Translations under genes and position numbers: made by a program
Part shown: piece by piece, positions 1 to 62,801 of the stretch
Layout: every line of letters begins with the position of its first letter
Position numbering within the stretch: position 1 is the stretch's first letter
Assembly: GCA_965262995.1 (NCBI GenBank)
Contig: OZ253574.1
Location: 994,513-1,058,512, forward strand
Origin: Leptonemataceae bacterium
Lineage (GTDB): Bacteria > Spirochaetota > Leptospiria > Leptospirales > Leptonemataceae
DNA: 64,000 bases
Reading direction: 5' to 3'
Notes under the pieces: model-generated
Seen by the model: only the letters and a program-made list of their open reading frames with translations
Told to the model about the DNA's origin: nothing
The model's database searches: none

Positions 1-611
1 GGAGTGGCAGGTGTCGCTGCCCCTGGTGTCGCCGCTTCTACAGGAGCAACCCTTGCATATGCCACTTTTAAGATAATAGGATTTCCTTGAATAACCACAT
101 CCCATTCTGAAGGAAGATTTAAATCTCCCAAACGAATAGCTTGGCCCAATTCAAGATTTGTAACATCAACATCTACAACTTCTTTTAAAGCTTCGGGAAC
201 TGTTTTTACTCTAAGTTTATGTATAAACTGCTCAAGTATTCCGCCTGATTTTACCCCCTTAGCCAAACCATTAGGAACAACGCCCACTGTTACCAAAAGA
301 CGTTTACCTTTTGTTAGCTGATAAAAATCTATATGCTGTATACGATTAGTTACAGGATGGCGTTGTATCTCTTTAACCACTACTTGCTTACCCGCTGCAG
401 AGCTTTCCCCTTCCATGCTAAGCACGCTACTGTTTCTCAAACCTGATTTAATCAACATTTCAATGTCTTTTTCTGCAAACTGAACTAAAGCAGATTTTCC
501 ACCTGCAATTATATTTCCAGGAAGCATTCCTGAACGACGTAACCGCCCCGCATGATTCTTTCCTTTTAGTTCTTCCGAACGGTTTTTAACATTTAAGTTA
601 TAATTTTTCAT
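1..611 (-). CDS. rplY: 50S ribosomal protein L25 / general stress protein Ctc (N-terminal part; C-terminus runs off the left window edge)
   Basis: Absent from the ORF track because it is open at the window edge. Minus-strand ATG at 611..609 follows GAGGAG. Translation MKNYNLNVKNRSEELKGKNHAGRLRRSGMLPGNI... fits the L25/Ctc N-terminus. The frame stays open to position 1 with an Ala/Pro-rich tail. It lies downstream of prs, as in the conserved prs-ctc cluster. Confidence 0.75.
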   Translation of the reverse strand, partial: MKNYNLNVKNRSEELKGKNHAGRLRRSGMLPGNIIAGGKSALVQFAEKDIEMLIKSGLRNSSVLSMEGESSAAGKQVVVKEIQRHPVTNRIQHIDFYQLTKGKRLLVTVGVVPNGLAKGVKSGGILEQFIHKLRVKTVPEALKEVVDVDVTNLELGQAIRLGDLNLPSEWDVVIQGNPIILKVAYARVAPVEAATPGAATPAT

Positions 612-641
612 ATTTTCTCCTCAATTTTTTTCTCTTTAACT

Positions 642-1595
642 TTATAGAAATAAAGAACTCACTGATTTTTCATTATGGATACGTGAAATTGCCTCACCTA
701 TCATATTTCCTACAGATAAAACTTTTAGTTTTGATATTTTTTTATTATCTGATAACATAATTGTATTTGAAACTATAATCTCATCCAAACAAGACTTTTC
801 GAGGCGTTCAACAGCTAATCCTGAAAGTACAGCATGTGTTGCACATACAAGAATCTTTTTGGCCTTTGATTTTTTTAAGGCAACAGCAGCATTCGTAATC
901 GTCCCGCCAGTATCAATAATATCATCATAAAGTATACAAGTCTTATCCTCGACATCACCTATCACATTCATTACCTCTGAAACATTAGCTTGAGGCCTTC
1001 TCTTATCTATAATGGCAAGATTTAAATTAAGATGTCTCGCCAAAAATCTCGCTCGTTCAGCACCACCCGAATCTGGAGCAACTACAACCACATTCGTTGT
1101 ATATTTAGCTTTTATATAATCCACAAAAACAGGGGCAGCATAAAGATGGTCTACTGGAATATGAAAAAAACCTTGAATTTGATCTGCATGTAAATCCATA
1201 CAAAGAAGGCGATTAGGACGAACTGCTTCTATAAGGTCAGCGACTACCCTAGCTGAAATAGGTACACGAGGCTCACTTTTTCTATCTTGTCTAGCATACC
1301 CATAATAAGGAATAACAACTGTAATTCTCGCTGCAGAAGCACGTCGAGCTGCATCTATCATTAAAAGTAATTGTACGAGATTATCGTTGGAGGGAGAGGC
1401 CATTGATTGAATAAGAAAGACATCACAACCTCTCGTCGTTTCTTCAAATTTAATAAGCATCTCTCCGTCTGAAAAACGTTTGGTTGTCATTTTACCCAAA
1501 GGCATATTTAGATAAGAACAAATCTCTTCAGATAAAGGAAGATTCGAATCTCCGGAAAAAACTAAAGGTTGGTACGACATATTTTTTATCTGCAA
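642..1595 (-). CDS. prs: ribose-phosphate pyrophosphokinase (PRPP synthetase)
   Basis: 317 aa with 'VVIPYYGYARQDRK' and the PRPP-binding loop 'ILYDDIIDTGGT'. Confidence 0.95.
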   Translation of the reverse strand: MQIKNMSYQPLVFSGDSNLPLSEEICSYLNMPLGKMTTKRFSDGEMLIKFEETTRGCDVFLIQSMASPSNDNLVQLLLMIDAARRASAARITVVIPYYGYARQDRKSEPRVPISARVVADLIEAVRPNRLLCMDLHADQIQGFFHIPVDHLYAAPVFVDYIKAKYTTNVVVVAPDSGGAERARFLARHLNLNLAIIDKRRPQANVSEVMNVIGDVEDKTCILYDDIIDTGGTITNAAVALKKSKAKKILVCATHAVLSGLAVERLEKSCLDEIIVSNTIMLSDNKKISKLKVLSVGNMIGEAISRIHNEKSVSSLFL

Positions 1596-1611
1596 TGTAA
1601 ACTTTACAGAG

Positions 1612-2442
1612 CTACTTCATACTTCCTATCTTTTGTTTTTTTAGGGATACATTAGAACGTGAAAACAAAGCTTCTATTTCGCTAAGCTCCAAAGGCGTAT
1701 TTACGCCACGTGCTTCTAAATTATCTTTTAAGGCAAAGCTAGAAACCTTATAATTATATTTAAGAGCGATGGCAATCATGTCGGGGAGATAATACTCTCC
1801 TTGCATGTTTTCTGCACCAATTTGCTTTAACAGAGGAAAGGCCCTTTGATTATGAAAAACATAAGTACCTGTATTAATTTCTTTTAGGGCTTTTTCATCT
1901 AGACTTGCATCTCTTTCTTCAACAATCTTATAAATAGCCCCCTCGTCATTTTTTACAATACGACCATAACCCGTTGGATTTTCTACGTAAGCGGTTAAAA
2001 CGGTAATTGTATTTTTGTTTAATAAATGATACTTAAGGAGCTTTTTAAATGTTTGAGCACGAAGCATAGGCATATCTCCCGCCACAACAACGAAGTGCTC
2101 TGAAACCTTGGTTTTTACGATGGAGACAGGTTTAAGTCTTTCCTCTGCACACAAAACCGCATGTCCCGTACCTAATTGTTCTTCTTGAAATATAAATTCA
2201 CATTTTTTATATAATGTCTTCTCGTACACCTTTTCTATTTGAGACTGTATTAGCTCTTTCTTATAGCCAACTATAATAATAAAGCGATTACAACCTGCTT
2301 TATCTAAATTTTCTATAACATGAAAAAGTAAGGGTTTGCCCTTTAGAGGGACAAGGACCTTAGGCATTTCCAAGCCCATTCGAGTACCTTTACCAGCTGC
2401 CAAGATAACAGCTGTAAAATTATCTGATTTTTTTTTATTCAT
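1612..2442 (-). CDS. GlmU-like sugar-1-phosphate nucleotidyltransferase (uridyltransferase domain only)
   Basis: 276 aa with 'ILAAGKGTRM', 'QEEQLGTGHAV' and 'GEYYLPDMI', matching the GlmU N-terminal domain. The ORF ends where the left-handed beta-helix acetyltransferase domain of full-length GlmU would start. Confidence 0.8.
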   Translation of the reverse strand: MNKKKSDNFTAVILAAGKGTRMGLEMPKVLVPLKGKPLLFHVIENLDKAGCNRFIIIVGYKKELIQSQIEKVYEKTLYKKCEFIFQEEQLGTGHAVLCAEERLKPVSIVKTKVSEHFVVVAGDMPMLRAQTFKKLLKYHLLNKNTITVLTAYVENPTGYGRIVKNDEGAIYKIVEERDASLDEKALKEINTGTYVFHNQRAFPLLKQIGAENMQGEYYLPDMIAIALKYNYKVSSFALKDNLEARGVNTPLELSEIEALFSRSNVSLKKQKIGSMK

Positions 2443-2481
2443 AATCTGAAGGTTTATTTACTATATGCAAAGAAAAGATAT

Positions 2482-2556
2482 TGGCTGGGCCGGGAGGATT
2501 CGAACCTACGGATGGTGGGACCAAAACCCACTGCCTTACCACTTGGCGACGGCCCA
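2482..2556 (-). tRNA. tRNA-Gln (anticodon UUG), CCA encoded
   Basis: Minus-strand cloverleaf: acceptor TGGGCCG/CGGCCCA, D-arm GCCAAGTGGTAAGGC, anticodon stem GTGGG/CCCAC with loop TTTTGGT (UUG), T-arm GGTTCGAATCC. Close to the E. coli tRNA-Gln pattern. Confidence 0.9.
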
Positions 2557-2598
2557 GTATATCCAAAAAAACATAAGCCAAATACCCATGAAATATTA

Positions 2599-3534
2599 TT
2601 AAAAACTACCCTCAAAAGTAAAGGGCACAATTTGAAATTTAGGATAAGCTGTTTGAAATATTTCACAAATTTTCCTTTGGCTATTCTCAGAGGCAACAAG
2701 AGCAAATAGAGCTGAGCCTGAACCCGACATCTGAACATACAGTACATCCTCCTTGCTTAACTCATTGCTTAAACTCTCTAATTCGCTATAAAGAGGAAAA
2801 ATAACTTTCTCAAAATCGTTCTGCAAATGTAATCCAAGCCTCCCCCAATTTCCTTGCTTAAGGGTATTTTGCAAGACTCGATTCGCTGAATACAAAAAAT
2901 TTTTAAATGGACTAAGGTGTAAACCTCTTTTTAATAATTCAAAGGCTTGTCGGGTATTTATATGTAAGCCAGTAAGGATAAGCACACCTAGACCCTGGGC
3001 TATTTTTAACTTTTTTCTTTTCTCTCCTATGCTATAAATTACACTAGGGGCAGGTTCTAAAAAAAATGGCACATCTGCCCCAAGCTCTATGGCAATTTTT
3101 AATAGTTGCTTTTTACTAAAGTCTGAACCCAATAATTTCTGCTTATAGAAATAAGACAAAAGCACGCCTGCATTTGAGCTACCGCCTCCTAGCCCTGAAC
3201 CAAGGGGTATATGCTTGATAAGCTTAATAAAAAAAGATTTTTCACGAAAGGGTTTTGTTTTTTTCAAAACATGCCAAATAAGATTATTTTCTTGCTTATT
3301 TTCTTTTATCAATTCATCAAATGCACTACGGCCATCCTCAAGGGCAATACGGTTTTCACAAACAAGCTGATCTCTCAAACCTTCCTTTACTTCAATAAAA
3401 TCACCAAAACTAATAGGAACAAAAATGCTAAAAATATTATGATAACCGTCACTAAAACGTTTACCTAAAACTTTAAGACCTATATTTATCTTTGCTGGGG
3501 AGTGTAACAACATGCTCAAAGAATAAGAAAACAA
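2599..3534 (-). CDS. ispE: 4-diphosphocytidyl-2-C-methyl-D-erythritol kinase
   Basis: 'PAKINIGLKV' N-terminus and GHMP-kinase loop 'PLGSGLGGGSSNA'. The true start may be an internal Met. Confidence 0.9.
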   Translation of the reverse strand: MFSYSLSMLLHSPAKINIGLKVLGKRFSDGYHNIFSIFVPISFGDFIEVKEGLRDQLVCENRIALEDGRSAFDELIKENKQENNLIWHVLKKTKPFREKSFFIKLIKHIPLGSGLGGGSSNAGVLLSYFYKQKLLGSDFSKKQLLKIAIELGADVPFFLEPAPSVIYSIGEKRKKLKIAQGLGVLILTGLHINTRQAFELLKRGLHLSPFKNFLYSANRVLQNTLKQGNWGRLGLHLQNDFEKVIFPLYSELESLSNELSKEDVLYVQMSGSGSALFALVASENSQRKICEIFQTAYPKFQIVPFTFEGSF

Positions 3535-3638
3535 AATTAAAATAACTCTAATTTCCCTCTAATCCGTTTCATTTCACGACTACCCTTCCTCTAAATCGAA
3601 TAGGTACAACATTTTTTGATTTATGCCCAATACAGGCC

Positions 3639-3941
3639 TTAGGGAAGCTCTATTTCGTTAAACCCTTCTTCAGGCATATCTTGGTAATTAAAGTTTTCAC
3701 AGTCCTCATCGCTAAAGAGGCCTGATACGCAAATTCCACAATAAGATTGTATTTCATCATATTTTTGCTTCCTAAGATGTTCCCACAATTCTTGTTCGTT
3801 TTCAAACTTCCCAAGATTTTTTGTTTCTTCAAACTCTATACCGCAAACTGTTTCAGCGTGAAATTCTTCTGTTTCAACATGAATATTTTTTGAGAAATTA
3901 GAATCGAGTATTTGAATTAAATTTAAAGCGTATTTTTCCAT
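3639..3941 (-). CDS. hypothetical small acidic protein
   Basis: 100-aa ORF with no recognisable motif. Coding status inferred only from ORF length in an otherwise empty gap. Confidence 0.4.
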   Translation of the reverse strand: MEKYALNLIQILDSNFSKNIHVETEEFHAETVCGIEFEETKNLGKFENEQELWEHLRKQKYDEIQSYCGICVSGLFSDEDCENFNYQDMPEEGFNEIELP

Positions 3942-14374: not shown

Positions 14375-17300
14375 TTACGTTTTTGGGGCGGATGGCTCGG
14401 CGGGCGATTTAGATTTTTTCTCTTTATATTTTACAAACTCATCTAATCTGTTTTCCCACTTCTTTTTGTCCGTTAGCCAAAGACTCCATTCTTCATCACT
14501 AATAAATAAATTTACGTCGTCCTCTTTATTTTCGATAGCCTTTTCGATATGTTTATATTCGATATGTTTATACATAATAATTCCCTTGCGAGCAATATTA
14601 TAAGCCCCGTTGGCATCTGCATCACAAGGTAGGCCTTTCTCACTTTTTCGAGAATCAAAATGGTTTCCTTTTTCGTCTCTTACACAAGAAAGTAAGAAAT
14701 TATCATCTTGGTTTTGTTTAGGGTCGCCGGAATTTCTAATTTGCTGTATAAGCTCAATAGCAAAGCGAAGTGATTCCCAAGCTGTGTGTTCTGAAATTTT
14801 TGATAATTGGACACCCTTTTTATCCTCTTCAATTTGCATTTTTAGAGATTTTTCTTTATCAAAGTCCTCAAATAAACCTTTGAGCATTTGTTTTACATTA
14901 AAAAATTCTGGTTCATAAATACCTTGATCATTTTTTTTATTTCTATATCTCTCAAGAGCTTCACCGTTTTTACCAGACCATAGCCTCCAAGTCTTTTCTT
15001 GTTTGTCCTTATATTGAAAATAATAATCTCCGTTTTTATCAATAGCTATTTCTTCAAACGAGTCAAGAATCTGTTTTTTGATATTTTCTTCAGTTCCTGT
15101 TTTTAGATAAATCGTTTTGTACCAACCTGTAGCTGGGTCAGTAATAGAAGTATAATTTGCCCTTGTATAGAGCATGATTCCAAATTGCTTCTGATTTTCA
15201 ATGTCTTCAAATTTTTTTACAAGGGGAGTGAGTTGAAGGGCTTTGGAAACCGAGCCTATCCCCACTTTGGCATTTTTATCTACTAAAAAATTCAGCTTCT
15301 TGGCTAGGGCTAATTCAAATTTTTGATAAACATTTTTTTCAAATTTTTGACGACCTCTCTTAAAACCTTGGGTTAGACCCTCTAACACAATAAAGGTTGG
15401 CTTAAAATTGCCATTCTCATCTTTACATTTTTTAAGAATCTCATGTATTGCAAGTGAAATATAACCTTCTTTTAAAGGAGCAATTTTATCCTGTGACAGC
15501 CATTCTAATTTTTGCTGTTTTCTTTTATCTGCTCTGTCTTGAATACTTTCTCCATAATTTTTTCCATTGATGCTATCAAAATGCCCCTGTTCTTTTATAT
15601 TGCATTCTTTATCTACAAGAGAGTAATAGATAAGATGTTTTTCACCTCTATCTATTCCTAAAAATTGCACATCTTCTTTTAGAAAGGTTTCGTTTACGAG
15701 TTTATTGACTGGTTTAATATAATCCTTTGGGGTTTTTCCCGACACTTGGACATTGTCATAATTCAAGGATATAGGAAAATGAAATTGTATTTTTTCTTCT
15801 GTAAAACGTTTATTTTTTATTATATCATGTTTAAAAACACTAGCGATTTCCCCATCAGTACGGCGTTTAATAGGTTCGTTTTTGGGGTGTAGTGTAGTCT
15901 GAGGAAAAGCTACTTTATTTCTAAAAAATATTTTAGCATTAGCTTGAAGTTGTATATTACTATTTTCATGAAAAAGATTTTCAAAATATAAAGTTTGCAA
16001 ATTAGGAAAACTATTTTTACTTTTTACTCCACGATTTTTAGAAAAATCTTTGCTATAAATTTGAAATAAATAAAGATTCTTTTTCTCTATATTATTTAAT
16101 AATTCTTTCCAATTGATAGGTGTAAATTCACATTCATAACTTTCTTTTAAGATTTGATCTAAATCATTGTGAAATTCACTTTTGTCTGAATATTTTTTTT
16201 TAACAATACTATTCAGTTTTGGATACTTTTCAAGATAAGTTTTATTACCCGTTGTCATCTTATAATCACGGATAAAGTTTTGGGCTTTTTCTATAGCTTC
16301 TATATTATTTCTTTTAGACATATCTTGATATTTTTCACCGTAATAAGATATGAATCCCTTTCCTAAAACTGTTTTAGATGTTATATTTTTTAAAATGAGA
16401 CGACCTGCATTTTCGGTCGGAGATTGATAAATAGGATTACCTTCTTTTCCTGTATCAAAAATTTTTCGTTCTATTAAAATTCCGACAAAGTATTCATCAG
16501 ATTTTTTGATAATAACACTTCCTTTGATTTTTTCTTGTCCGTCAGGCCAGCCACCAAGTAAATTTGAATTTTCAAAATTAAGCTGTATCTTATTTTCTTT
16601 TGCATCATCTTGGGGCTTTTTTGTCAGATAATTTCTTATGGTATCATAAGCATTAGTCCAATGAATATCTTTGGGGCGTAAAATAGCATCTAGCATATTC
16701 GAAAACTCAGCATCTAAAGCACCGCCACTACTCTTTTTTATTTTTGACTCTGAAACATAAAATAACTTTACGGTTCTTACAATCTCAATACAGGCATCTA
16801 AAAATTCTTTGATTTTTAAGATATTTTCCTCTTTCTTAAAATCTTGCATTACAATAGCTTTTTTATTTTTTTGAAATTCGTTGAACTGTGCTTCTAAATC
16901 ACAACAGATAAGAGAAATGAGAGTTTTACTGGGCTTGTCTTCTGATTTTATTACGTCTTTGTACCTCTCATTTTCTAAAACACTATTTTTAAAAAAAGTC
17001 TGCGTCCAATCATTTTCTAGTTTTGAGGCCTCATCTATAATTTCAAATAAAATTGAAAGCTGAACCGTATCTTTGAATTCGAAGCCTTTCTTTTTTTTAT
17101 CGTAGCGGGCTATTTTTTTATATTTTTCTTTAGTGGCGTTTTCTAATTTATCTTTGCTTAAAAGAACATTTTTTACTTTTTCTGCGAGAGCTTGAAAGTT
17201 TGCTAAATACTTGTTCGATATTTTCGATAATGCCGATTTAGACCAATGCACGCTATCCCAATCTTGATTTGATGTGAGCCAGTTTATGAGAGTATGTGAG

Positions 17301-18472
17301 TTTGTTTTATCTTCGACAAATTCTGTATTAAAATAGTTATCACCCGCCTTAAAAATGTTTTCTAAAACACCTTCTACACTCAATACAGATGCAGTATTTT
17401 TGGGCTCTTTCTCTTCTTGTTGCTCTTTTGTGTCGTATTGAATGGCATCAAAAAGTGCTTTTTTATCCCCGCAACCAATCTGTTTGTATAAGGTTTTAAA
17501 ATAGAGTAGTTTACCTTTCTTTGCTTCTTTTGTAACCAGTTGTTGGTTGTATAAATTGATTACTAGATTATACCCTCCTATGATGCAATTGTATTTTTCT
17601 ATCTCTTTTTGAGAAAGACACTTCGAGAAATTATCTATATTAAATATCGCCTCTGAAATATCTTCTGATTCAATCATATCCCCCGAACGAGTATCTTTAA
17701 TTTGGGTTGTTTTACCTTTATCTTTGAGAGAAGTGCGGGCGAGTTTGTAAGAATCTTTATTTTTTTCAAACTGTACAGAGTTTGAGCAAAATTTGCGTAA
17801 ATTTTCATGCACGATACGAGTGGCTATAGCAGTTGCTTTTTCTTTTTCTGTTTCATAATAATTGTTTCTGTTTTGATTATAAGTTGCGAAATATCCCCAA
17901 AAACCTTTAAAAACACTTAAATGCCCGTTTTCGCCTGTATATTCAGCAGAGTTTTTTTCGCATAGCTTTGCTAATTCTTGTATGTTTTGTTTTAAATACT
18001 CGAGCAACCCAGCTTCAAATAATTTCTCTATCCCTATTTTTTTGAAGATAGCTTTTCCTTTCCCTTTGAGTTGTGGGTTTTTGGTAACTTCATCTGCTGC
18101 TATGGAATAGGTTTTGCCTATTTCTGTTCTTAATTTTTTTTCTATTGTTTCTAATTCTTTTTTAGCTTGGTCATTAGAGGCTTTGTATGTTTCATAATAC
18201 TCGTTGAAATTAATTTCCTTAGCCGCTTTTGATTCTAAACTCGCATCGATCACCTGTTCATGCACCTTATCTAAAATAGGCTTTAAATCATTGTAGGCCT
18301 TAGCTATTTTTTTATCTTGGGCGATTATTTCTTTGAGAGATTCTACCATTTCTTTAGAGCTTACAACATCTCCATTTTTGCCCACCAGCTTCAACTCAAA
18401 CCGTAAAGTCTTGCTCAAAGAATATACGTTTGTAAACTTATCCCATATACTTTTTTTGTTTGCTATACTCAT
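14375..18472 (-). CDS. cas12a: type V-A CRISPR effector Cas12a (Cpf1)
   Basis: 1365 aa. RuvC-I 'FLGIDRGEKHLIYYSL', RuvC-II 'FIVLEGLTQGFKRGRQKFEKNVYQKFE', RuvC-III 'LPCDADANGAYNIARKG'. WED/pre-crRNA RNase region 'LHPKNEP...HDIIKNKRFTEEKIQFHFPISLNY'. No HNH domain. Adjacent to an array whose repeat carries the Cas12a handle. SD AAAGGAG precedes the ATG. Confidence 0.95.
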   Translation of the reverse strand: MSIANKKSIWDKFTNVYSLSKTLRFELKLVGKNGDVVSSKEMVESLKEIIAQDKKIAKAYNDLKPILDKVHEQVIDASLESKAAKEINFNEYYETYKASNDQAKKELETIEKKLRTEIGKTYSIAADEVTKNPQLKGKGKAIFKKIGIEKLFEAGLLEYLKQNIQELAKLCEKNSAEYTGENGHLSVFKGFWGYFATYNQNRNNYYETEKEKATAIATRIVHENLRKFCSNSVQFEKNKDSYKLARTSLKDKGKTTQIKDTRSGDMIESEDISEAIFNIDNFSKCLSQKEIEKYNCIIGGYNLVINLYNQQLVTKEAKKGKLLYFKTLYKQIGCGDKKALFDAIQYDTKEQQEEKEPKNTASVLSVEGVLENIFKAGDNYFNTEFVEDKTNSHTLINWLTSNQDWDSVHWSKSALSKISNKYLANFQALAEKVKNVLLSKDKLENATKEKYKKIARYDKKKKGFEFKDTVQLSILFEIIDEASKLENDWTQTFFKNSVLENERYKDVIKSEDKPSKTLISLICCDLEAQFNEFQKNKKAIVMQDFKKEENILKIKEFLDACIEIVRTVKLFYVSESKIKKSSGGALDAEFSNMLDAILRPKDIHWTNAYDTIRNYLTKKPQDDAKENKIQLNFENSNLLGGWPDGQEKIKGSVIIKKSDEYFVGILIERKIFDTGKEGNPIYQSPTENAGRLILKNITSKTVLGKGFISYYGEKYQDMSKRNNIEAIEKAQNFIRDYKMTTGNKTYLEKYPKLNSIVKKKYSDKSEFHNDLDQILKESYECEFTPINWKELLNNIEKKNLYLFQIYSKDFSKNRGVKSKNSFPNLQTLYFENLFHENSNIQLQANAKIFFRNKVAFPQTTLHPKNEPIKRRTDGEIASVFKHDIIKNKRFTEEKIQFHFPISLNYDNVQVSGKTPKDYIKPVNKLVNETFLKEDVQFLGIDRGEKHLIYYSLVDKECNIKEQGHFDSINGKNYGESIQDRADKRKQQKLEWLSQDKIAPLKEGYISLAIHEILKKCKDENGNFKPTFIVLEGLTQGFKRGRQKFEKNVYQKFELALAKKLNFLVDKNAKVGIGSVSKALQLTPLVKKFEDIENQKQFGIMLYTRANYTSITDPATGWYKTIYLKTGTEENIKKQILDSFEEIAIDKNGDYYFQYKDKQEKTWRLWSGKNGEALERYRNKKNDQGIYEPEFFNVKQMLKGLFEDFDKEKSLKMQIEEDKKGVQLSKISEHTAWESLRFAIELIQQIRNSGDPKQNQDDNFLLSCVRDEKGNHFDSRKSEKGLPCDADANGAYNIARKGIIMYKHIEYKHIEKAIENKEDDVNLFISDEEWSLWLTDKKKWENRLDEFVKYKEKKSKSPAEPSAPKT

Positions 18473-18574
18473 TTTTTTCTCCTTTTTACTTCCCCCTAAC
18501 TTAATTTGGAATACTTACATTTATATTTTCTCGCACCATCATCATACCATACAAGAGAGGTGTGATATTTTAGA

Positions 18575-18603
18575 AATTTAGAAAACCTTTCTCACCTTGG
18601 CAA
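18575..18603 (-). promoter_or_regulatory. candidate sigma70-type promoter for cas12a, between the last repeat and the cas12a start
   Basis: Minus strand reads TTGCCA, a 17-nt spacer, then TAAATT, about 100 nt upstream of the ATG. Sequence inspection only. Confidence 0.3.
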
Positions 18604-18625
18604 GCGAATGAGACAACACTCTCCC

Positions 18626-20888
18626 ATCTACAACAGTAGAAATTTATTTAGAGTTCCTCACACAGACGGAAGAGTTAAACAAGCAAAATCTACAACAGTA
18701 GAAATTTATTTAGAGTTCCTCACACAAGTGGAAACGATAAACGCGGGCAGATCTACAACAGTAGAAATTTATTTAGAGTTCCTCACCTCACATGCCATGA
18801 CTTGTCCAAATTAATCTACAACAGTAGAAATTTATTTAGAGTTCCTCACAAATAGGTATACTGGAGAGTGAATCCACATCTACAACAGTAGAAATTTATT
18901 TAGAGTTCCTCACTAGTGTAGTGCCTAAAAGGGTCGATACGCTATCTACAACAGTAGAAATTTATTTAGAGTTCCTCACAGTGGTAGCAATGGTACAAGT
19001 CACAGATCTACAACAGTAGAAATTTATTTAGAGTTCCTCACTCTTATGAGTACGGAAGTGAGTCATCTATCTACAACAGTAGAAATTTATTTAGAGTTCC
19101 TCACACTTTCTTTTTTTGGGATCGCTGTCGAATCTACAACAGTAGAAATTTATCTAGAGTTCCTCACTGACTTGGAAGGAGAAGCGAACAGAAATATCTA
19201 CAACAGTAGAAATTTATTTAGAGTTCCTCACAAATGGCAAAAGAAATAACATTATTAAGATCTACAACAGTAGAAATTTATTTAGAGTTCCTCACCTTGA
19301 CTCTCATCTATGCTATCACTATAATCTACAACAGTAGAAATTTATTTAGAGTTCCTCACTAGAGGGGACTACAGTATAATACATGTATCTACAACAGTAG
19401 AAATTTATTTAGAGTTCCTCACTTTCGCAGAACTACTGGCAGAACTAACATATCTACAACAGTAGAAATTTATTTAGAGTTCCTCACCCAATATAAGGAA
19501 CTGAAACTCATTCATATCTACAACAGTAGAAATTTATTTAGAGTTCCTCACTGATAGAGTAAACAACATGGCTGGCAATAATCTACAACAGTAGAAATTT
19601 ATTTAGAGTTCCTCACAGCCAAATAATTCTCACCCAACCTCCGATCTACAACAGTAGAAATTTATTTAGAGTTCCTCACTCTTAGTATGCCTAGAGCTAA
19701 CGAAGCATCTACAACAGTAGAAATTTATTTAGAGTTCCTCACGGGGCATTGGACAACACAAAGAGACGCAATCTACAACAGTAGAAATTTATTTAGAGTT
19801 CCTCACGTGTTTTTTCGAATTCTAAAAATAAGTATCTACAACAGTAGAAATTTATTTAGAGTTCCTCACTATGACTGACTCAGAAGTTATTGCTTTTTAT
19901 CTACAACAGTAGAAATTTATTTAGAGTTCCTCACTGTGTTTAAGGATTCTTATAACTATGCCATCTACAACAGTAGAAATTTATTTAGAGTTCCTCACCC
20001 TGAGATGAAATATAACGTAAGAAAATATCTACAACAGTAGAAATTTATTTAGAGTTCCTCACCACCACATTAAAAGTAGAGAGTATCTATCTACAACAGT
20101 AGAAATTTATTTAGAGTTCCTCACTACAAAAAAACTTATAGAGCTAAAAAATATCTACAACAGTAGAAATTTATTTAGAGTTCCTCACTAGTAAGTGGGG
20201 TCGTTCGCAGGTGTAAAAATCTACAACAGTAGAAATTTATTTAGAGTTCCTCACTGCAACATCTACACTCAATTCAGCAATATCTACAACAGTAGAAATT
20301 TATTTAGAGTTCCTCACTTGTAAACTGTCCCACAGTTCATTTAGATCTACAACAGTAGAAATTTATTTAGAGTTCCTCACAATTACATGACGTGGAAATT
20401 TTTTAGTATCTACAACAGTAGAAATTTATTTAGAGTTCCTCACAATTACGGACCTATTGCGAATTTTAATGATCTACAACAGTAGAAATTTATTTAGAGT
20501 TCCTCACACAAAAGCAGATATTTGGAAAAGTTTGATCTACAACAGTAGAAATTTATTTAGAGTTCCTCACACACTGCCCTTAAATATAGAATTTATTGAT
20601 CTACAACAGTAGAAATTTATTTAGAGTTCCTCACATATAACATTATAGGGAAATACAATTATATCTACAACAGTAGAAATTTATTTAGAGTTCCTCACGT
20701 ATTGCTACTATTGCATTTAGTGAGATCTACAACAGTAGAAATTTATTTAGAGTTCCTCACTAGCAAAATTCTTTAGTAAAGGTGTTGGCGTTAAGATCTA
20801 CAACAGTAGAAATTTATTTAGAGTTCCTCACCCCAATTTATCTATTATAAAAATCTACAACAGTAGAAATTTATTTAGAGTTCCTCAC
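18626..20888 (-). CRISPR. type V-A CRISPR array, 36 repeats of 36 nt and 35 spacers
   Basis: Plus-strand repeat is ATCTACAACAGTAGAAATTTATTTAGAGTTCCTCAC. The transcribed minus strand reads GTGAGGAACTCTAAATAAATTTCTACTGTTGTAGAT. Spacers are mostly 26-30 nt. Exceptions are a 35-nt spacer (20761-20795) and a 21-nt spacer (20832-20852). One repeat variant (19132-19167) has TATCTAGAG instead of TATTTAGAG. Confidence 0.98.
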
Positions 20889-21067
20889 CCTATTGACAAA
20901 ATTCAAATAGGAAATTTATGACAAAAAGAAAGGTTTTACTTTCTGAACTCTTTAGAAGGTAAAATTCTTTACTTTTTAAAGACATAAACCATAAAAAACT
21001 CTATACAGTGACATAATAAAGACATCTATTTTATCGTAAAGCATATTAAGACCAAGGTTTGCAAATT
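20889..21067 (-). promoter_or_regulatory. putative CRISPR leader
   Basis: AT-rich 179-bp non-coding segment between the cas2 stop and the first repeat in transcription order. The position matches the leader of Cas12a arrays. Confidence 0.55.
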
Positions 21068-21340
21068 TTACAACATCAGTATCTCTTTATCCTCATTGGC
21101 AGCATATCCAAATCGTTGCACTTTATCAACTGCTCCAAGATGAAAAATTATTACACTATCAGCTCCTGTAAATTTTGATTTATACCTTAAGTTAATTTCT
21201 GTAATAATATTTTCTAAAACTCTTTTACTAAATTTGATTTGAAAAACTGAATACTGAATACGATGACCATACTTTAATAAAAATTTGGAAAAATGTAAAC
21301 GCACCTTATTATTTGAAATATCATAGGCCACAATCAACAT
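21068..21340 (-). CDS. cas2: CRISPR-associated endoribonuclease Cas2
   Basis: 90 aa starting 'MLIVAYDISNNKVR...IQYSVFQ', a ferredoxin-like Cas2 pattern. Directly downstream of cas1. Confidence 0.9.
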   Translation of the reverse strand: MLIVAYDISNNKVRLHFSKFLLKYGHRIQYSVFQIKFSKRVLENIITEINLRYKSKFTGADSVIIFHLGAVDKVQRFGYAANEDKEILML

Positions 21341-21349
21341 AACTATTTT

Positions 21350-22315
21350 TTATATTAGAAATCGAGGATATTCCTCCAAAGACTTATTTTTCATAAAGGC
21401 CCTATAAAAATTTTGAATATAAATAAAAATTTCTTCTTTGTATTCCATTAAAGCTTCTGCAAAAAGAAAAGTATACTTTTCACTCTTTTTATATTTCATT
21501 TCGTATTGCTTCCTTAAAAAAATAAAATCGCTTGGGTCAATTTGCTTTAAAGAAAAGGCCTTTCGTAATTTTGCATCAATGATACAACGAAATGGTTCTA
21601 TAAGATCGCAAACCAAAGATTTTCTTTCATAAAAAGGTCTATGGAAAACTCCTTTATACAAATCAAAACCATAAAGACGTAAATGACTTTCTATAAAACT
21701 AAAAAGATACGTATAACCCACATCTAAAAGTAAATTAATAATATCATGACGGGTACGAGGGAGACGACGTTGCCAATCAAATCGTTCAAAGTAGGCTTGA
21801 AAAAATTCTTTACTACAATACCCCTCCACCCCCATTAAAGTTTGATTGTCGTTTGTTTCTAAAACAAAATCTAAATTATGTTTTAATTTATTTATAGCGT
21901 TTTTTAATTTTAAACTTTTGCCACGAATGTCTTTTAAATTTTTTAATTGATTCAAAATTTTATTATGCACAATAATCTTAGAAAGTAAAAAACTTTGGGA
22001 ATGTGTATACTGCTTTTCTCTAAGTAAATAATTTCCTTCTGTTTGAGCACCCATAACACTATACACACGAAAATTACGACCCATCAACACTGTTATAAAA
22101 CCATAGCTAACAGCTTTACGCAAAAGAACACTTGTAAGGGTTGTATCCCCAATTAAAAATAAAGCAAATATCTTATAGCAGGGTACTTTATTTTCTATAA
22201 GATTTGTATCTGTCTCTCGAATAATCAAATTATCATTTGAAAATTGTAACTTTTGATTTTTCTTTCCATGTATAAAAACAATTTGCTTTTCTTTAAAATC
22301 AGGCAAGGTTAACAT
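21350..22315 (-). CDS. cas1: CRISPR-associated integrase Cas1
   Basis: 321 aa with the conserved Glu in 'LMGVEGYCSKEFF', His in 'GVFHRPFY' and acidic 'DLIEPFR'. Confidence 0.92.
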   Translation of the reverse strand: MLTLPDFKEKQIVFIHGKKNQKLQFSNDNLIIRETDTNLIENKVPCYKIFALFLIGDTTLTSVLLRKAVSYGFITVLMGRNFRVYSVMGAQTEGNYLLREKQYTHSQSFLLSKIIVHNKILNQLKNLKDIRGKSLKLKNAINKLKHNLDFVLETNDNQTLMGVEGYCSKEFFQAYFERFDWQRRLPRTRHDIINLLLDVGYTYLFSFIESHLRLYGFDLYKGVFHRPFYERKSLVCDLIEPFRCIIDAKLRKAFSLKQIDPSDFIFLRKQYEMKYKKSEKYTFLFAEALMEYKEEIFIYIQNFYRAFMKNKSLEEYPRFLI

Positions 22316-22322
22316 ATTTCTT

Positions 22323-22868
22323 TTAACAAATATCGCACAAAGGATTGTAAATACATTCTCGACACTTCCCTTCTATTTGCTGAAAAGAATCTAATAAATT
22401 AAATTTTTTAACTTGAAGCAAATGCCCTTCAAATTTTTTAATAGTGGCATCGTCGGGAATCGGAAGGTTATAGCGTTTATTATCATCTAAGGAGTGAAGA
22501 CATAAGGAATCTACACCAAAACCCATCTCTGTTAGACAAAAGTAATGCGCGTATATTTGATAAAGATAGCCTTCATATATAGTTTTAATTTTACCCTTTC
22601 TCTCAATAATTTTTTTATCTTCTTGATCATAAACATCTATCTTACCGCAAATACCATATTTTTCGGAATAAACGTCTATATTTAGCAAATAGCGATTTAA
22701 AGTGGAGTAACTCCCCTTTTCTATGCTCTCATGCTTGATTTTTCCTTGAATTTGCGAATTTCTGTGATAAAGGCGTGAGTCGTATTGCCCATAAAGTTGA
22801 TGATAATAAATAGAACGCGGACAAAAAACAAAGTCATTTAAATAAGTGATGGGTAAATACGTTTCCAC
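22323..22868 (-). CDS. cas4: CRISPR-associated exonuclease Cas4
   Basis: 181 aa with N-terminal Cys 'FVFCPRSIYY', RecB-nuclease core 'GKIDVY...IIERKG' and C-terminal Cys cluster 'CRECIYNPLCDIC' (4Fe-4S ligands). Confidence 0.9.
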   Translation of the reverse strand: METYLPITYLNDFVFCPRSIYYHQLYGQYDSRLYHRNSQIQGKIKHESIEKGSYSTLNRYLLNIDVYSEKYGICGKIDVYDQEDKKIIERKGKIKTIYEGYLYQIYAHYFCLTEMGFGVDSLCLHSLDDNKRYNLPIPDDATIKKFEGHLLQVKKFNLLDSFQQIEGKCRECIYNPLCDIC

Positions 22869-22930
22869 TTTTAAACATTTCGGTTTTCATTTACCTAAAC
22901 ATTAATATTAAGATGTAGGTGGTGGCAAGG

Positions 22931-23218
22931 TTAAGTGCTTTTATGATTTGAGGGTGGGATTAGCTTTTTGGAAGCTGAAAAAAATATTTTTTCTTTCAAA
23001 TTTGCTATCGTGACAAATTCCATCAAAGTTAAAAAATCTACGCATTCAAAATCTCCAAAGTTTTGAATGGGGCTCCTTTTGTTTTCTATTTTTTGAACAA
23101 AATTCTTGTCATATTTTTTTGCCCATGAACATACACATTGATAAGGAGTTTGTAAAAGTGCTGCAATTTCATTATAAGTATAAGCACCCTCTCCGAACTT
23201 TAATTCATAGCCTTTCAT
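22931..23218 (-). CDS. small HTH-like protein at the head of the cas4-cas1-cas2 cluster (hypothetical)
   Basis: 95 aa. 'YTYNEIAALLQTPYQCVCSWAKKY ... VDFLTLMEFVTIANLKEK' resembles MerR/VapB45-type N-terminal HTH modules. This is pattern recognition only. No Shine-Dalgarno is present, and the ATG lies 3 nt after a degenerate CRISPR repeat. Confidence 0.45.
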   Translation of the reverse strand: MKGYELKFGEGAYTYNEIAALLQTPYQCVCSWAKKYDKNFVQKIENKRSPIQNFGDFECVDFLTLMEFVTIANLKEKIFFSASKKLIPPSNHKST

Positions 23219-23220
23219 AT

Positions 23221-23256
23221 TTCTACAACAGTAGTAATTTATATAAGTCCCGTAAT
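23221..23256 (-). repeat. solitary degenerate CRISPR repeat (psi-repeat 1) abutting the HTH-like gene start
   Basis: TCTACAACAGTAG (23222-23234) matches the array repeat exactly. The handle half reads AAAUUACUACUGUUGUAGAA versus canonical AAUUUCUACUGUUGUAGAU. The distal half of the repeat is diverged. Confidence 0.8.
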
Positions 23257-23337
23257 CTTCTTAGTTAGAACTTAAAACCAAGACTATTTAAGCCGAATAT
23301 TATGTACACAATAAATTAGGCAACATTAAGTCATGCC

Positions 23338-23600
23338 CCTCCTTTGCAATATTGGCGTGATAACAAAAACCGTCTCTATAATAGCGTCGGCGATGGCGGC
23401 GACCTCAAATCTATAAGTGGCTGTTGCAATAGAGGGTCTGGTGGAGATTTTTCGGCGGGATTAAGTAGTAAGCCGTCTTTGCAATAGAAGCGACAGTGAT
23501 AGGCTGTTTTTTGGCTACAACCCGCCTTTGCAATAGAGGTGGTGTAGTCTTTTTTATTTAGCAACAACACGTATTTTTAATAGTGGCGATGTAAACGGTT
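23338..23600. repeat. GC-enriched degenerate tandem repeat (~47-54 bp unit, 5-6 copies) with TTGCAATAG core
   Basis: Cores lie at about 23344 (TTGCAATATTGGCG), 23377 (TATAATAGCGTCGG), 23424 (TTGCAATAGAGGG), 23478 (TTGCAATAGAAGCG), 23527 (TTGCAATAGAGGTGG) and 23574 (TTTTAATAGTGGCG). Inter-core segments are also homologous (TTTTTCGG/TTTTTTGG/TTTTTTAT). Confidence 0.75.
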
Positions 23601-23666
23601 TTATTTAGGCCTCTAACTTACAATTTTTTTAAACGTCTAAGTAAATCCTGTGCGTCTATTAGAAAA

Positions 23667-24011
23667 TTAGGAACCAATTGGAACACTTTTTTCTGCCTGC
23701 TCTCTATTGTAAGTGTGAGAAGTTGTGTTTCGTGCATTTAAATATGAAATCCAATCTTCAGAATCCTTTATCAATTCAAGTTTTGCTGCCTCCCTAAAAG
23801 TATCTTTGCGCGCTGTAATCTCTGGCATGTTAAAAATTTCCTTTAAAACTCTATTTAGAAGTTGTCGTGAAATATCCATTGTGATCTCGAAACATTGAAT
23901 GACCCCCATACGCCCCACTTCCATTTCTGGAATTTTTGCCTGTTCTTTTAAAACTCGACTTAAAGTATCTATTGCTTTTTCCAAAGCTTCAAAACTTAAC
24001 TTCTCTATCAT
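23667..24011 (-). CDS. HEPN-domain toxin (HI0074-family nucleotidyltransferase substrate-binding protein, HepT-like)
   Basis: 114 aa with C-terminal R-x4-H motif 'RNTTSHTY'. Directly downstream of a minimal nucleotidyltransferase gene. Confidence 0.8.
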   Translation of the reverse strand: MIEKLSFEALEKAIDTLSRVLKEQAKIPEMEVGRMGVIQCFEITMDISRQLLNRVLKEIFNMPEITARKDTFREAAKLELIKDSEDWISYLNARNTTSHTYNREQAEKSVPIGS

Positions 24012-24025
24012 AAATTATTTTATTT

Positions 24026-24352
24026 TTAACTTTTTACTTTCAACACAACTTTATCTTTTTTTATAATATTTTTAAAAGTTTCACTTATGCAAGCCCAATC
24101 CACAATATCAACCTTATATGGAAGATCAGATTCTTGAAAGGCTTCGTTTAATTCAGCGTTCGCATTTATACACAAAGGTTCTGTAGTTAAGATAGCAATG
24201 TCAAGGTCTGAATGCTTTTTGGCAATACCTTTGGCTCGTGAACCAAAGACCCAAACTTCATATTGAGGTACATGTTTTTGTAAAATTTCGTGAACTAATA
24301 GCAAATGTCTCGGTTCAATATCTATTAGGTCTGTTTTTTTTATTTCACTCAT
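24026..24352 (-). CDS. minimal nucleotidyltransferase antitoxin (MNT/MntA-like)
   Basis: 108 aa with 'VWVFGSRAKGIAKKHSDLDIAIL', the GS-x9-DxD pol-beta nucleotidyltransferase motif. Confidence 0.85.
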   Translation of the reverse strand: MSEIKKTDLIDIEPRHLLLVHEILQKHVPQYEVWVFGSRAKGIAKKHSDLDIAILTTEPLCINANAELNEAFQESDLPYKVDIVDWACISETFKNIIKKDKVVLKVKS

Positions 24353-24569
24353 ACATTAAATCTGCAATTTTAAAGGGGCTAAAATTTATATTATCTATCA
24401 GACTTATACCATCCATATATTAATCACAAAAACACACAAAAATATAAAGATACAAAGTATAAAGAAACAATAAATAAAAATAAAAATATAAAAAGTTTAT
24501 ATTTTATTCATACACCTTTACCACCTTATCTTTTAGTGGAGTAGGCTCCTATTTGTTAAAAAGAGAAAT

Positions 24570-25559
24570 TTACTTCGTTTCTAAAAACTCAAAAATTTTA
24601 TCATTACTTGGTACATCTGTGAAAGGTGAAAGATGATCTCCTTCTACAATTTTTAAAACAGTGGCTTTGTTTTTTGTTAAAAAAGTAACTTCATCTGTTG
24701 TTAAACGTCCTATAGGTCCATCATATTCTCCATAGACATACATTAGATTTTTTAAATCCTTGCTTTCTAATAATTTTGAATATCTATTTTGACCAAAGGC
24801 AGCTTGCAGTTTATTCATGTTTTTAGAACTAAAAGTCACATTTGGACCTGGGTCATGTCTTTTAAAATTTTCGCCAGTAGCATCAAAATAGCCTCCGACA
24901 CCATCCCTAAAAGCCATCCACATTTCATCTGGTGTGTCTATTCTTCCAGCCCATATAGATAACTTATCTGCAATTCTACTTATATCTGTTTTTGCTATAA
25001 GGTAAGGCATGAGGAAGGAACCAAAAGAATGCGAAATTAAATAAACCCTTTTGTTTTGTTGTTTAAACGACTCTGCCACTTTACAAGCCATGTAAGTTGA
25101 TATTTCATCGTCTTTAAATGCCCTTTCCATAGTATAATTTTTACTATATTCTGTAGTATTCCACTTCATAATGTCAGGATTAATCATTTGAGATTGATAC
25201 ACACTAGCAACAGTAAAAATGCTAGCCCATTTTGGAAGTCCTGAGTCAAAAGAACCTTGAGCAGGTGGAACAGGGATTCCTGTTATAGGACCTCCTATCA
25301 TAAACACGACAACCGTATTAGAATTAGCGTTACCACTTTTTAAGTACATATCTGATACTAAACTTGGTATTACCGTAGTCGTTGGCTCAGTACTTGTTAT
25401 TATACTATCACATGTATTCGTATTATTATTAGTGGTTGAGTCGGCATTTTTACATGTAACAAATCCAAGAACTAATAAACCTAAAGTAATAAATTGAAAA
25501 TAACTTTTCAATTTATTAACACATTCATTTTTTTTTATTGAAATATTTATTTTAATCAT
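24570..25559 (-). CDS. lipoprotein, alpha/beta-hydrolase (lipase/esterase)-like
   Basis: Signal peptide with lipobox 'LGFVTC' and nucleophile-elbow-like 'LISHSFGSF'. No closer family recognised. Confidence 0.55.
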   Translation of the reverse strand: MIKINISIKKNECVNKLKSYFQFITLGLLVLGFVTCKNADSTTNNNTNTCDSIITSTEPTTTVIPSLVSDMYLKSGNANSNTVVVFMIGGPITGIPVPPAQGSFDSGLPKWASIFTVASVYQSQMINPDIMKWNTTEYSKNYTMERAFKDDEISTYMACKVAESFKQQNKRVYLISHSFGSFLMPYLIAKTDISRIADKLSIWAGRIDTPDEMWMAFRDGVGGYFDATGENFKRHDPGPNVTFSSKNMNKLQAAFGQNRYSKLLESKDLKNLMYVYGEYDGPIGRLTTDEVTFLTKNKATVLKIVEGDHLSPFTDVPSNDKIFEFLETK

Positions 25560-62321: not shown

Positions 62322-62801
62322 TTACTTGCGATTAGATTTATACCAAAGAGATATTATAAGGCTAGCTAAAAGAAGAGCAAAGATTAGAATGAAAATAGGC
62401 ATTAGTAAGGAATGCTGTGCTAAAACTTTAGGCCCATAGCCTTTTTCTAAATTATCGATAAAGTCTTTGTAGCCTTTTTCAATTAGGCTTTGGGCATAGG
62501 GATCTTTGTATATTTCTGAAGAGTAACCTTTTTCAAAAGAGTGAATTATATTTTTACAAAGGTCTCCTTTTTTTATACGATTTTCAATAAAACGACGAGC
62601 GGGAATTGCAAAAGGGCAATCAACATGAGAGCATAAACTTAAAACTTGATTACAGCCACATTGGCAAACTAAGGCATTTGAAACCTCTGTGAAGCATTGA
62701 ACTTCCTTGGGGTCCCTTAGTTGTGTATAAACTTCTTGTGCTTTGATATGAAAATTAACCCCTATAAAAAAGAGTATCACAAAAGCTATTAGTCTATTCA
62801 T
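62322..62801 (-). CDS. cytochrome c-type biogenesis protein CcmH/NrfF-like
   Basis: 159 aa with a signal peptide, Cys cluster 'LVCQCGCNQVLSLCSHVDCP' and a C-terminal TM anchor. Directly downstream of the CcmF-like gene. Confidence 0.5.
   Translation of the reverse strand: MNRLIAFVILFFIGVNFHIKAQEVYTQLRDPKEVQCFTEVSNALVCQCGCNQVLSLCSHVDCPFAIPARRFIENRIKKGDLCKNIIHSFEKGYSSEIYKDPYAQSLIEKGYKDFIDNLEKGYGPKVLAQHSLLMPIFILIFALLLASLIISLWYKSNRK

Follow-up and report, generated by a model that had tools for sequence, protein, structure and literature searches.

A solitary CRISPR repeat in a type V-A locus of Leptonemataceae, probably a stranded unit at the start of a truncated gene

Why does a single CRISPR repeat stand directly before a start codon, outside the array with which it shares its orientation? 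In the 64,000-nucleotide stretch of Leptonemataceae DNA analysed here, referred to as the window, such a repeat precedes the adaptation genes of a type V-A locus. A first-pass annotation offered three explanations: that Cas12a binds the 5' end of the mRNA and hides the start codon, that the repeat belongs to a crRNA-like RNA guiding Cas12a to a promoter, or that it is an inert fossil, the last being listed but disfavoured. Here, we report that the fossil fits best, in view of a full-length copy with a damaged handle, the lack of a target in the sequence searched and the lack of conservation among the related loci. The element is probably a standalone repeat unit, a complete CRISPR repeat that is stranded outside an array and is slowly decaying.

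The type V-A locus and its extra repeat

All relevant features of the locus are carried on the minus strand. In the direction of reading, an MNT/HEPN-like gene pair (23667-24352, with MNT at 24026-24352 and the HEPN-like gene at 23667-24011, both by Pfam) is separated by an intergenic region of 410 nt from the solitary full-length repeat GATTACGGGACTTATATAAATTACTACTGTTGTAGAA (23221-23257), of which the 5' half occupies 23240-23257 and the handle half 23221-23239. The 95-aa open reading frame (22931-23218) and a AAAACCGAAAT box (22877-22887) come next, followed by cas4 (22323-22868; Pfam Cas_Cas4, with homologues annotated as type V Cas4), cas1 (21350-22315; Pfam Cas_Cas1, E=7.9e-45) and cas2 (21068-21340; Pfam CRISPR_Cas2). 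The CRISPR leader (20890-21067) ends in TTTGTCAATAGG at the first repeat, as does the leader of the related locus L082, and the array (18626-20889) consists of 36 repeats of GTGAGGAACTCTAAATAAATTTCTACTGTTGTAGAT, beyond which a degenerate terminal repeat (18560-18595) can be read directly from the sequence. The gene for a Cas12a of 1365 aa lies downstream of the array (14375-18472).

That the effector is a genuine Cas12a is shown by a score of 535 bits against the equivalog model TIGR04330 (cas_Cpf1) and by an alignment over its full length to solved Cas12a structures, and on these two grounds a Cas12a2-like RNA-targeting variant was rejected. With this effector, cas4-cas1-cas2 and array repeats that end in a Cas12a-type handle, the locus belongs to type V-A. 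The order cas4-cas1-cas2-array-cas12a (14375-22868) is unusual in having the effector downstream of the array; cas12a is upstream of cas4 in about 70 other fetched V-A loci, but not in the window or in L082, which have the order cas4-cas1-cas2-array in common. The MNT-HEPN type pair, directly upstream of the CRISPR locus, recurs with 90% nucleotide identity in the related genome L085 (5264-6048), where it adjoins cas12a, and it was used as a synteny anchor.

The 19-nt handle of the array repeat, AATTTCTACTGTTGTAGAT, has 36 exact matches in the array. With up to three mismatches allowed, its sole match elsewhere in the 64 kb is at 23221-23239 on the minus strand (AATTACTACTGTTGTAGAA, two mismatches), the number of extra matches expected by chance for such a 19-mer being 0.05. 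The same site was returned with E=0.018, and no other outside the array, by a profile of 72 V-A repeats that was applied, with the speed filters off, to the masked window and the related loci. The observation of one extra copy of a V-A repeat is confirmed, and most of its first description is borne out: it has the orientation of the array, at 2.33 kb from the leader-proximal repeat at 20889, shares 13 consecutive nucleotides with the array repeat (TCTACAACAGTAG, 23222-23234) and differs from it in the handle at positions -1 and -15. The ATG of the 95-aa frame (23218-23216) begins at the third base past the handle, the repeat ending 2 nt before it, and the reported absence of a Shine-Dalgarno sequence also holds, as no purine-rich motif is present there.

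Both the handle scan and the profile search yield one repeat-like unit only, and not a mini-array. A second degenerate repeat inside the reading frame (23185-23150 and 23104-23084, with a spacing of about 65-70 nt by eye) was considered and discarded when the unfiltered 72-repeat profile proved empty there. The profile was likewise empty over 23258-23700, where a decayed array upstream of the solitary copy would be sought. The conserved leader end TTTGTCAATAGG is absent at the solitary copy, which is therefore not a leader-proximal repeat. Rfam gave nothing meaningful in 18300-24600 that would make the element a known RNA family, and no further copies of the region, such as a mobile element would have, were found in the window or in the fetched loci.

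Repeat lineage, handle changes and the gene that follows

The case for a function had rested on the view that the half of the repeat that Cas12a trims away has decayed beside a preserved handle half, and that such selective conservation of the protein-bound half argues against pure decay. Both claims give way when the repeat is compared with those of related loci. Relatives of the window Cas4 were fetched, and the closest locus is L082, with 75% Cas4 identity, whose array repeat is GATTAAGGACTTATAAAAATTTCTACTGTTGTAGAT. The solitary copy, the only extra match in the window, agrees with this repeat at 32/36 positions with one 1-nt indel, as BLAST also finds, and with the window's own array repeat at 28/36. 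In the 5' half the agreement is 15/17 with the L082 repeat and 11/17 with the resident one, and the median for 73 other V-A loci is 8/17. The element is a full-length copy of 37 nt, and its 5' half seemed decayed because it had been compared with the resident array repeat. Measured against the L082-type repeat, the handle has its share of the changes, with two in 19 nt there and three in the 5' 17-18 nt.

This result carries a caution for the reading of solitary repeats in general. The 5' half of V-A repeats varies by lineage, while the handle is common to essentially all of them. Comparison of a solitary repeat with the resident array alone can therefore fake selective conservation of the handle, an illusion that is removed by comparison with a sister-lineage repeat. 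The same comparison accounts for the TATAAA -10-like element, which had been read as placing the start of transcription at the handle; it is part of the repeat itself, and the L082 repeats contain TTATAAAAA. Just upstream of the solitary repeat, the search for a sigma-70-like promoter was negative.

One observation points the other way. Between the solitary copy and the L082 repeat the identity is still 89%, whereas the cas genes of the two loci have only about 69% DNA identity, which means that the copy either is young or is subject to some constraint. A neutral copy as old as the split between the window and L082 should have decayed further, which counts against reading it as a relic.

The changes in the handle were set against position counts from 1937 individual array repeats of about 73 arrays. 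Position -15, the base before CUAC, is T in 1937/1937 of them and A in the solitary copy. Position -1, also A in the solitary copy, is T in 1932/1937 and A in three, of which at least two are terminal, as they close the arrays of L028 and L032. The CUAC/GUAG stem and UGUU loop had been described as intact; this is true of the four stem pairs and the loop, but the canonical stem has 5 bp and that of the copy only 4, the pair with A-2 being lost through the change of U-15 to A. The predicted stability of the hairpin goes from about -5 to -3.2 kcal/mol. The AAUU 5' nucleotides are kept along with the four pairs and the loop. In LbCas12a, activity depends critically on the 5'-tetranucleotide U whose partner is the last base of the handle (PMC12279986), and this partner (-1) is altered in the solitary copy. 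Judged from these positions, the changes look like neutral decay and not like selection for Cas12a binding. Any transcript of the repeat may be a weak ligand of Cas12a, since both the loss of the A-2:U-15 pair and the change at -1 would be expected to impair binding.

The reading frame behind the repeat had been regarded as the first gene of the adaptation operon. In a word-indexed search of 5.8 billion proteins it matches itself only. One real homologue, P0122 (E=1.3e-14), came from an exhaustive HMMER search over 1.8 billion cluster representatives; it is a protein of 226 aa with an N-terminal HTH_28 (residues 10-35) and a C-terminal DUF433. The two are 51% identical over about the first 85 residues (residues 4-82, or 3-87 of P0122), where the similarity ends, and by tblastn the homology of the region to P0122 is limited to 23209-22973. 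Of the two parts of the HTH-DUF433 family, the frame has the N-terminal HTH; it stops at residue 95, the DUF433 domain is absent, and no DUF433-like sequence was found in the window by tblastn. The P0122 gene is intact in L085, downstream of the same MNT/HEPN pair, and the HTH gene is therefore native to this position. The 95-aa frame is the first 85 or so codons of a resident HTH-DUF433 gene that was cut off, and not a cas gene. In L085 the P0122 ATG is preceded by AT-rich sequence without a repeat and without a Shine-Dalgarno motif. Since the intact homologue also does without one, the missing Shine-Dalgarno sequence is not an adaptation but a trait that the HTH gene has from its ancestor.

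The placement of this remnant at the head of the operon is further undermined by the fact that cas4 has a box of its own, the AAAACCGAAAT at 22887-22877, with which the native proximal upstream region of cas4 has been retained. A box of the form A(A/G)CCGA(A/T)A is found 10-20 nt upstream of the cas4 start in the window as well as in its nearest relatives (L002-L008, L083, L084 and L187-L190), and a unit with this box is tandemly repeated four times in L082 (9790-9995). The box may serve to regulate the adaptation genes.

Guide targets and conservation

A CreR-like RNA, directing Cas12a to a partially matching promoter, would need a target. The sequence after the handle, ATATGAAAGGCTATGAATTAAAGT, was taken as a pseudo-guide and scored at each of the 4521 TTTV sites of the window. 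The best TTTV-flanked match covers 8 consecutive nucleotides at 62746, inside a 159-aa open reading frame 39 kb away, and 23% of random window 8-mers match as well, which places it at chance level. This coding match is the best that the proposed search for TTTV-flanked partial matches yields within the window. No seed match of at least 6 nt occurs in any cas-locus intergenic region with any PAM or none, and the search for a CreR target was likewise negative over the window, the additional L001 sequence and, with relaxed PAM, the cas-locus intergenic regions. The notion of a guide to a partially matching promoter is thus left without a target in the available sequence, though positive controls were recovered: in L069, L081 and L028 the same scan gives PAM-proximal matches of 7-9 nt located 80-100 nt away, at the cas12a start. 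L081 is Moraxella bovis, of the genus in which CreR was demonstrated, and the control solitary repeats, which adjoin cas12a, agree with the published CreR architecture (10.1101/2023.03.10.532045; 10.1101/2024.10.29.618823).

In described CreRs the 20-nt handle is unchanged, the spacer matches a TTTV-flanked site of the cas12a promoter at about 9-10 PAM-proximal positions, and the unit is situated just upstream of cas12a and ends in a terminator or a second degenerate repeat (10.1101/2023.03.10.532045). The window copy differs in all four respects. Its handle has substitutions at -15 and -1 where identity with the cognate repeat would be expected, no TTTV-flanked cas-promoter site in the window has about 9 or more PAM-proximal matches, the copy does not adjoin cas12a, and it is followed neither by a terminator-like site on that strand nor by a second degenerate repeat. 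Its likeness to CreR (Liu et al., 10.1101/2023.03.10.532045) and to crRNA-like RNAs (10.1101/2024.10.29.618823) consists in a single repeat-like unit, in the orientation of the cas genes, that is followed by unique sequence.

Solitary repeats adjoining cas12a were encountered in L069 (5976), L081 (5986), L028 (1621), L005 (5814) and L014 (5507), those in L005 and L014 having weaker or less well-placed matches of 6-7 nt. They look like CreR-type autoregulatory elements, including those in a Jingyaoa isolate and in candidate-phyla MAGs.

Conservation of the handle half in orthologous loci had been named as a further check, and upstream of cas4 the element is absent in L082, L083, L084 and L187-L190. 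The only other sequence with the element is L001, which is from the same strain and identical across 840 nt. No handle-like sequence lies within 600 nt upstream of cas4 in any of the nine closest loci, even at four mismatches; the loci scanned were L082-L084, L187-L190 and the Leptospirales-like L002-L008. A solitary handle upstream of cas4 is also absent from about 80 other V-A genome loci, L041 aside. The conservation that is used for calling standalone units functional and crRNA-like is accordingly missing in the related loci.

L041, a Sphingobacteriales MAG (JADFDM010000010.1, 9766-10004), is alone among 80 genome loci in having a perfect handle, AAATTTCTACTGCTGTAGAT, 4 nt before the cas4 ATG. 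The 235-nt spacer between its cas12a and cas4 duplicates, in decayed form, the first 235 nt of cas4, and the L041 handle therefore also lies at a rearrangement scar. In the relatives L040, L032 and L030 (76-78% Cas4 identity) a handle upstream of cas4 is absent. A recurrent fusion of handle and cas4 was sought throughout the metagenome collection with a pattern that places a cas4-like start no more than 12 nt after the handle; of the 101 matches none had a Cas4 reading frame after it, all being random palindromes or ordinary array spacers. The arrangement of a handle before cas4 is sporadic and not a recurrent design. The same L041 spacer also contains, 160 nt upstream, a 6-nt TTTA-flanked match to the pseudo-guide.

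Origin of the repeat and competing readings

The solitary repeat appears to sit at a rearrangement junction of the V-A locus, where the HTH-DUF433 gene 3' of the repeat would have been cut off by the cas4-cas1-cas2-array-cas12a block that now follows. Its source may have been an earlier array, or an earlier state of the present array, with an L082-like repeat. Most likely it was a trailer-end repeat, because A at -1 occurs in only three array repeats, at least two of them terminal. Alternatively, it could have arrived by recombination with a co-occurring L082-type locus. In a plausible history, an array with L082-type repeats once ended beside the HTH-DUF433 gene; this lost array may have belonged to an upstream cas12a unit. 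All but the terminal repeat would then have been lost, and the HTH-DUF433 gene is now interrupted by the present cas block. We infer this order of events from the present arrangement of the repeat and the gene fragment. The proximity of the repeat to the ATG would be a by-product of the position of the junction, and the repeat would have no dedicated function. Among the several arrangements in this lineage, L085 has a cas12a of the window type directly upstream of the MNT/HEPN neighbourhood. The repeat can in this sense be used as a rearrangement marker, indicating that adaptation genes, array and cas12a have been reshuffled in this lineage.

Two cas12a genes, 27-29% identical to each other, are present in L001, a metagenome contig. 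The upstream gene (1-3855) is typical, with Pfam matches to the PI, NUC and REC2 domains, and is located upstream of a 403aa-329aa-MNT-HEPN series, in the position that cas12a has in L085. The second is the window-type gene that follows the array (compare window 14375-18472). The window does not have the upstream copy, and its homology with L001 breaks at about 26390.

The reading that attaches most meaning to the ATG is that Cas12a cuts the mRNA of the reading frame and cas4 upstream of the handle and stays bound, with the start codon hidden at guide positions +3 to +5, so that expression tracks the level of free Cas12a. The orientation of the repeat with the downstream genes and its end 2 nt before the start codon are compatible with this, as are the AAUU nucleotides, four stem pairs and loop that are kept, and L041 has independently placed a perfect handle 4 nt before a cas4 ATG. 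Binding of Cas12a at the 5' end is nevertheless unsupported. Both substitutions fall at invariant or nearly invariant positions among the 1937 repeats, one of them breaking a stem pair, and what would be controlled is a gene fragment unrelated to CRISPR, while cas4 retains its conserved box. A sigma-70-like promoter was not found upstream, no relative conserves the arrangement, none of the 101 metagenome matches repeats it, and the L041 copy is likewise a lineage-specific scar. We regard this reading as unlikely. Should it hold, nature would here provide a Cas effector that controls translation by way of the site at which it processes RNA. That a Cas12a handle in a 5' UTR serves as an RNA-level operator, at which free Cas12a would cut and cap the mRNA and so link the HTH fragment and possibly cas4-cas1-cas2 to effector occupancy, and of which the perfect L041 handle would be the cleaner second example, is distinctly improbable. 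A DNA-level role is also quite unlikely, either as a recombination handle through which CRISPR-cas modules are exchanged or recaptured, or as a site at which Cas1-Cas2 would, rarely, integrate outside the array. The whole repeat has been kept, including the part that is removed from the mature crRNA, it is located at a rearrangement junction, its lineage shows the locus in several arrangements (window, L001 with two cas12a genes, and L085), and recombination at such units has been proposed (PMC10120712). Such a role would follow from being a repeat, however, and not from a selected function; the copy is single, shows no signs of added spacers and lacks the conserved leader end TTTGTCAATAGG found at the first array repeat.

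A guide in the manner of CreR, in which the repeat and about 24 nt steer Cas12a to a TTTV-flanked promoter site and repress it without cutting, is very improbable. Such elements are established in V-A loci (10.1101/2023.03.10.532045; 10.1101/2024.10.29.618823) and the scan recovers elements of this type in L069, L081 and L028, but the same scan is empty in the cas locus of the window. The 'spacer' is moreover coding sequence conserved with P0122, neither a terminator nor a second degenerate repeat follows the unit, the handle differs from that of the array, unlike in described CreRs, and the repeat is upstream of the adaptation genes and not next to cas12a. Chance resemblance, for which only the AT-rich background speaks, is hardly credible given 0.05 expected matches for the 19-mer at up to three mismatches, the agreement at 32/36 positions with a real sister-locus repeat and the profile E-value of 0.018.

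A stranded, slowly decaying repeat has ample precedent. Standalone repeat units (SRUs) occur in about half (49-56%) of V-A loci (Shmakov et al. 2023, PMC10120712); many of them were judged to be spurious, by-products or remnants, and a possible role in recombination was suggested (PMC10120712). The window copy resembles them as a single repeat-like sequence within a V-A locus, outside the array and without a second repeat (PMC10120712). Most of the described V-A units adjoin cas12a and are conserved within clades (PMC10120712), whereas the window copy is found ahead of the adaptation genes, directly beside an unrelated gene that is truncated, and in no relative examined is it conserved. The text of the same study describes, for its Figure S6, a remnant repeat of a lost V-A locus in Francisella hispaniensis (PMC10120712). 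The likeness is that a degenerate leftover repeat marks a CRISPR-cas unit that was lost or rearranged (PMC10120712). Compared with the case in that figure, the window still has a complete V-A locus beside its remnant, and the remnant is closer to the repeat of a sister locus than to the resident array repeat. RNA anti-CRISPRs (Racr) are made of solitary repeat units that are borne by phages and plasmids (Camara-Wilpert et al. 2023, PMC10651486). The window repeat could in principle occupy a Cas protein as these do; it differs in being chromosomal, in a neighbourhood syntenic with a related genome, and in a handle with two damaging changes. For the biology of V-A systems the finding matters little, since stranded repeats of this class are known from about half of the loci and this is one more.

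A further feature of this junction lies just upstream of the solitary repeat. At 23338-23600, in an otherwise AT-rich intergenic region, four to six degenerate GC-rich motifs that can form hairpins (CCACCTCTATTGCAAAGGCGG, minus strand) are arranged in tandem with a period of about 45-50 nt. As a structured RNA they were set aside, since fold z-scores are weak on both strands and Rfam is empty there. Within the window the motif is unique to this spot, and one motif similar to CCACCTCTATTGCAAAGGCGG is found upstream of the intact HTH-DUF433 gene in L085.
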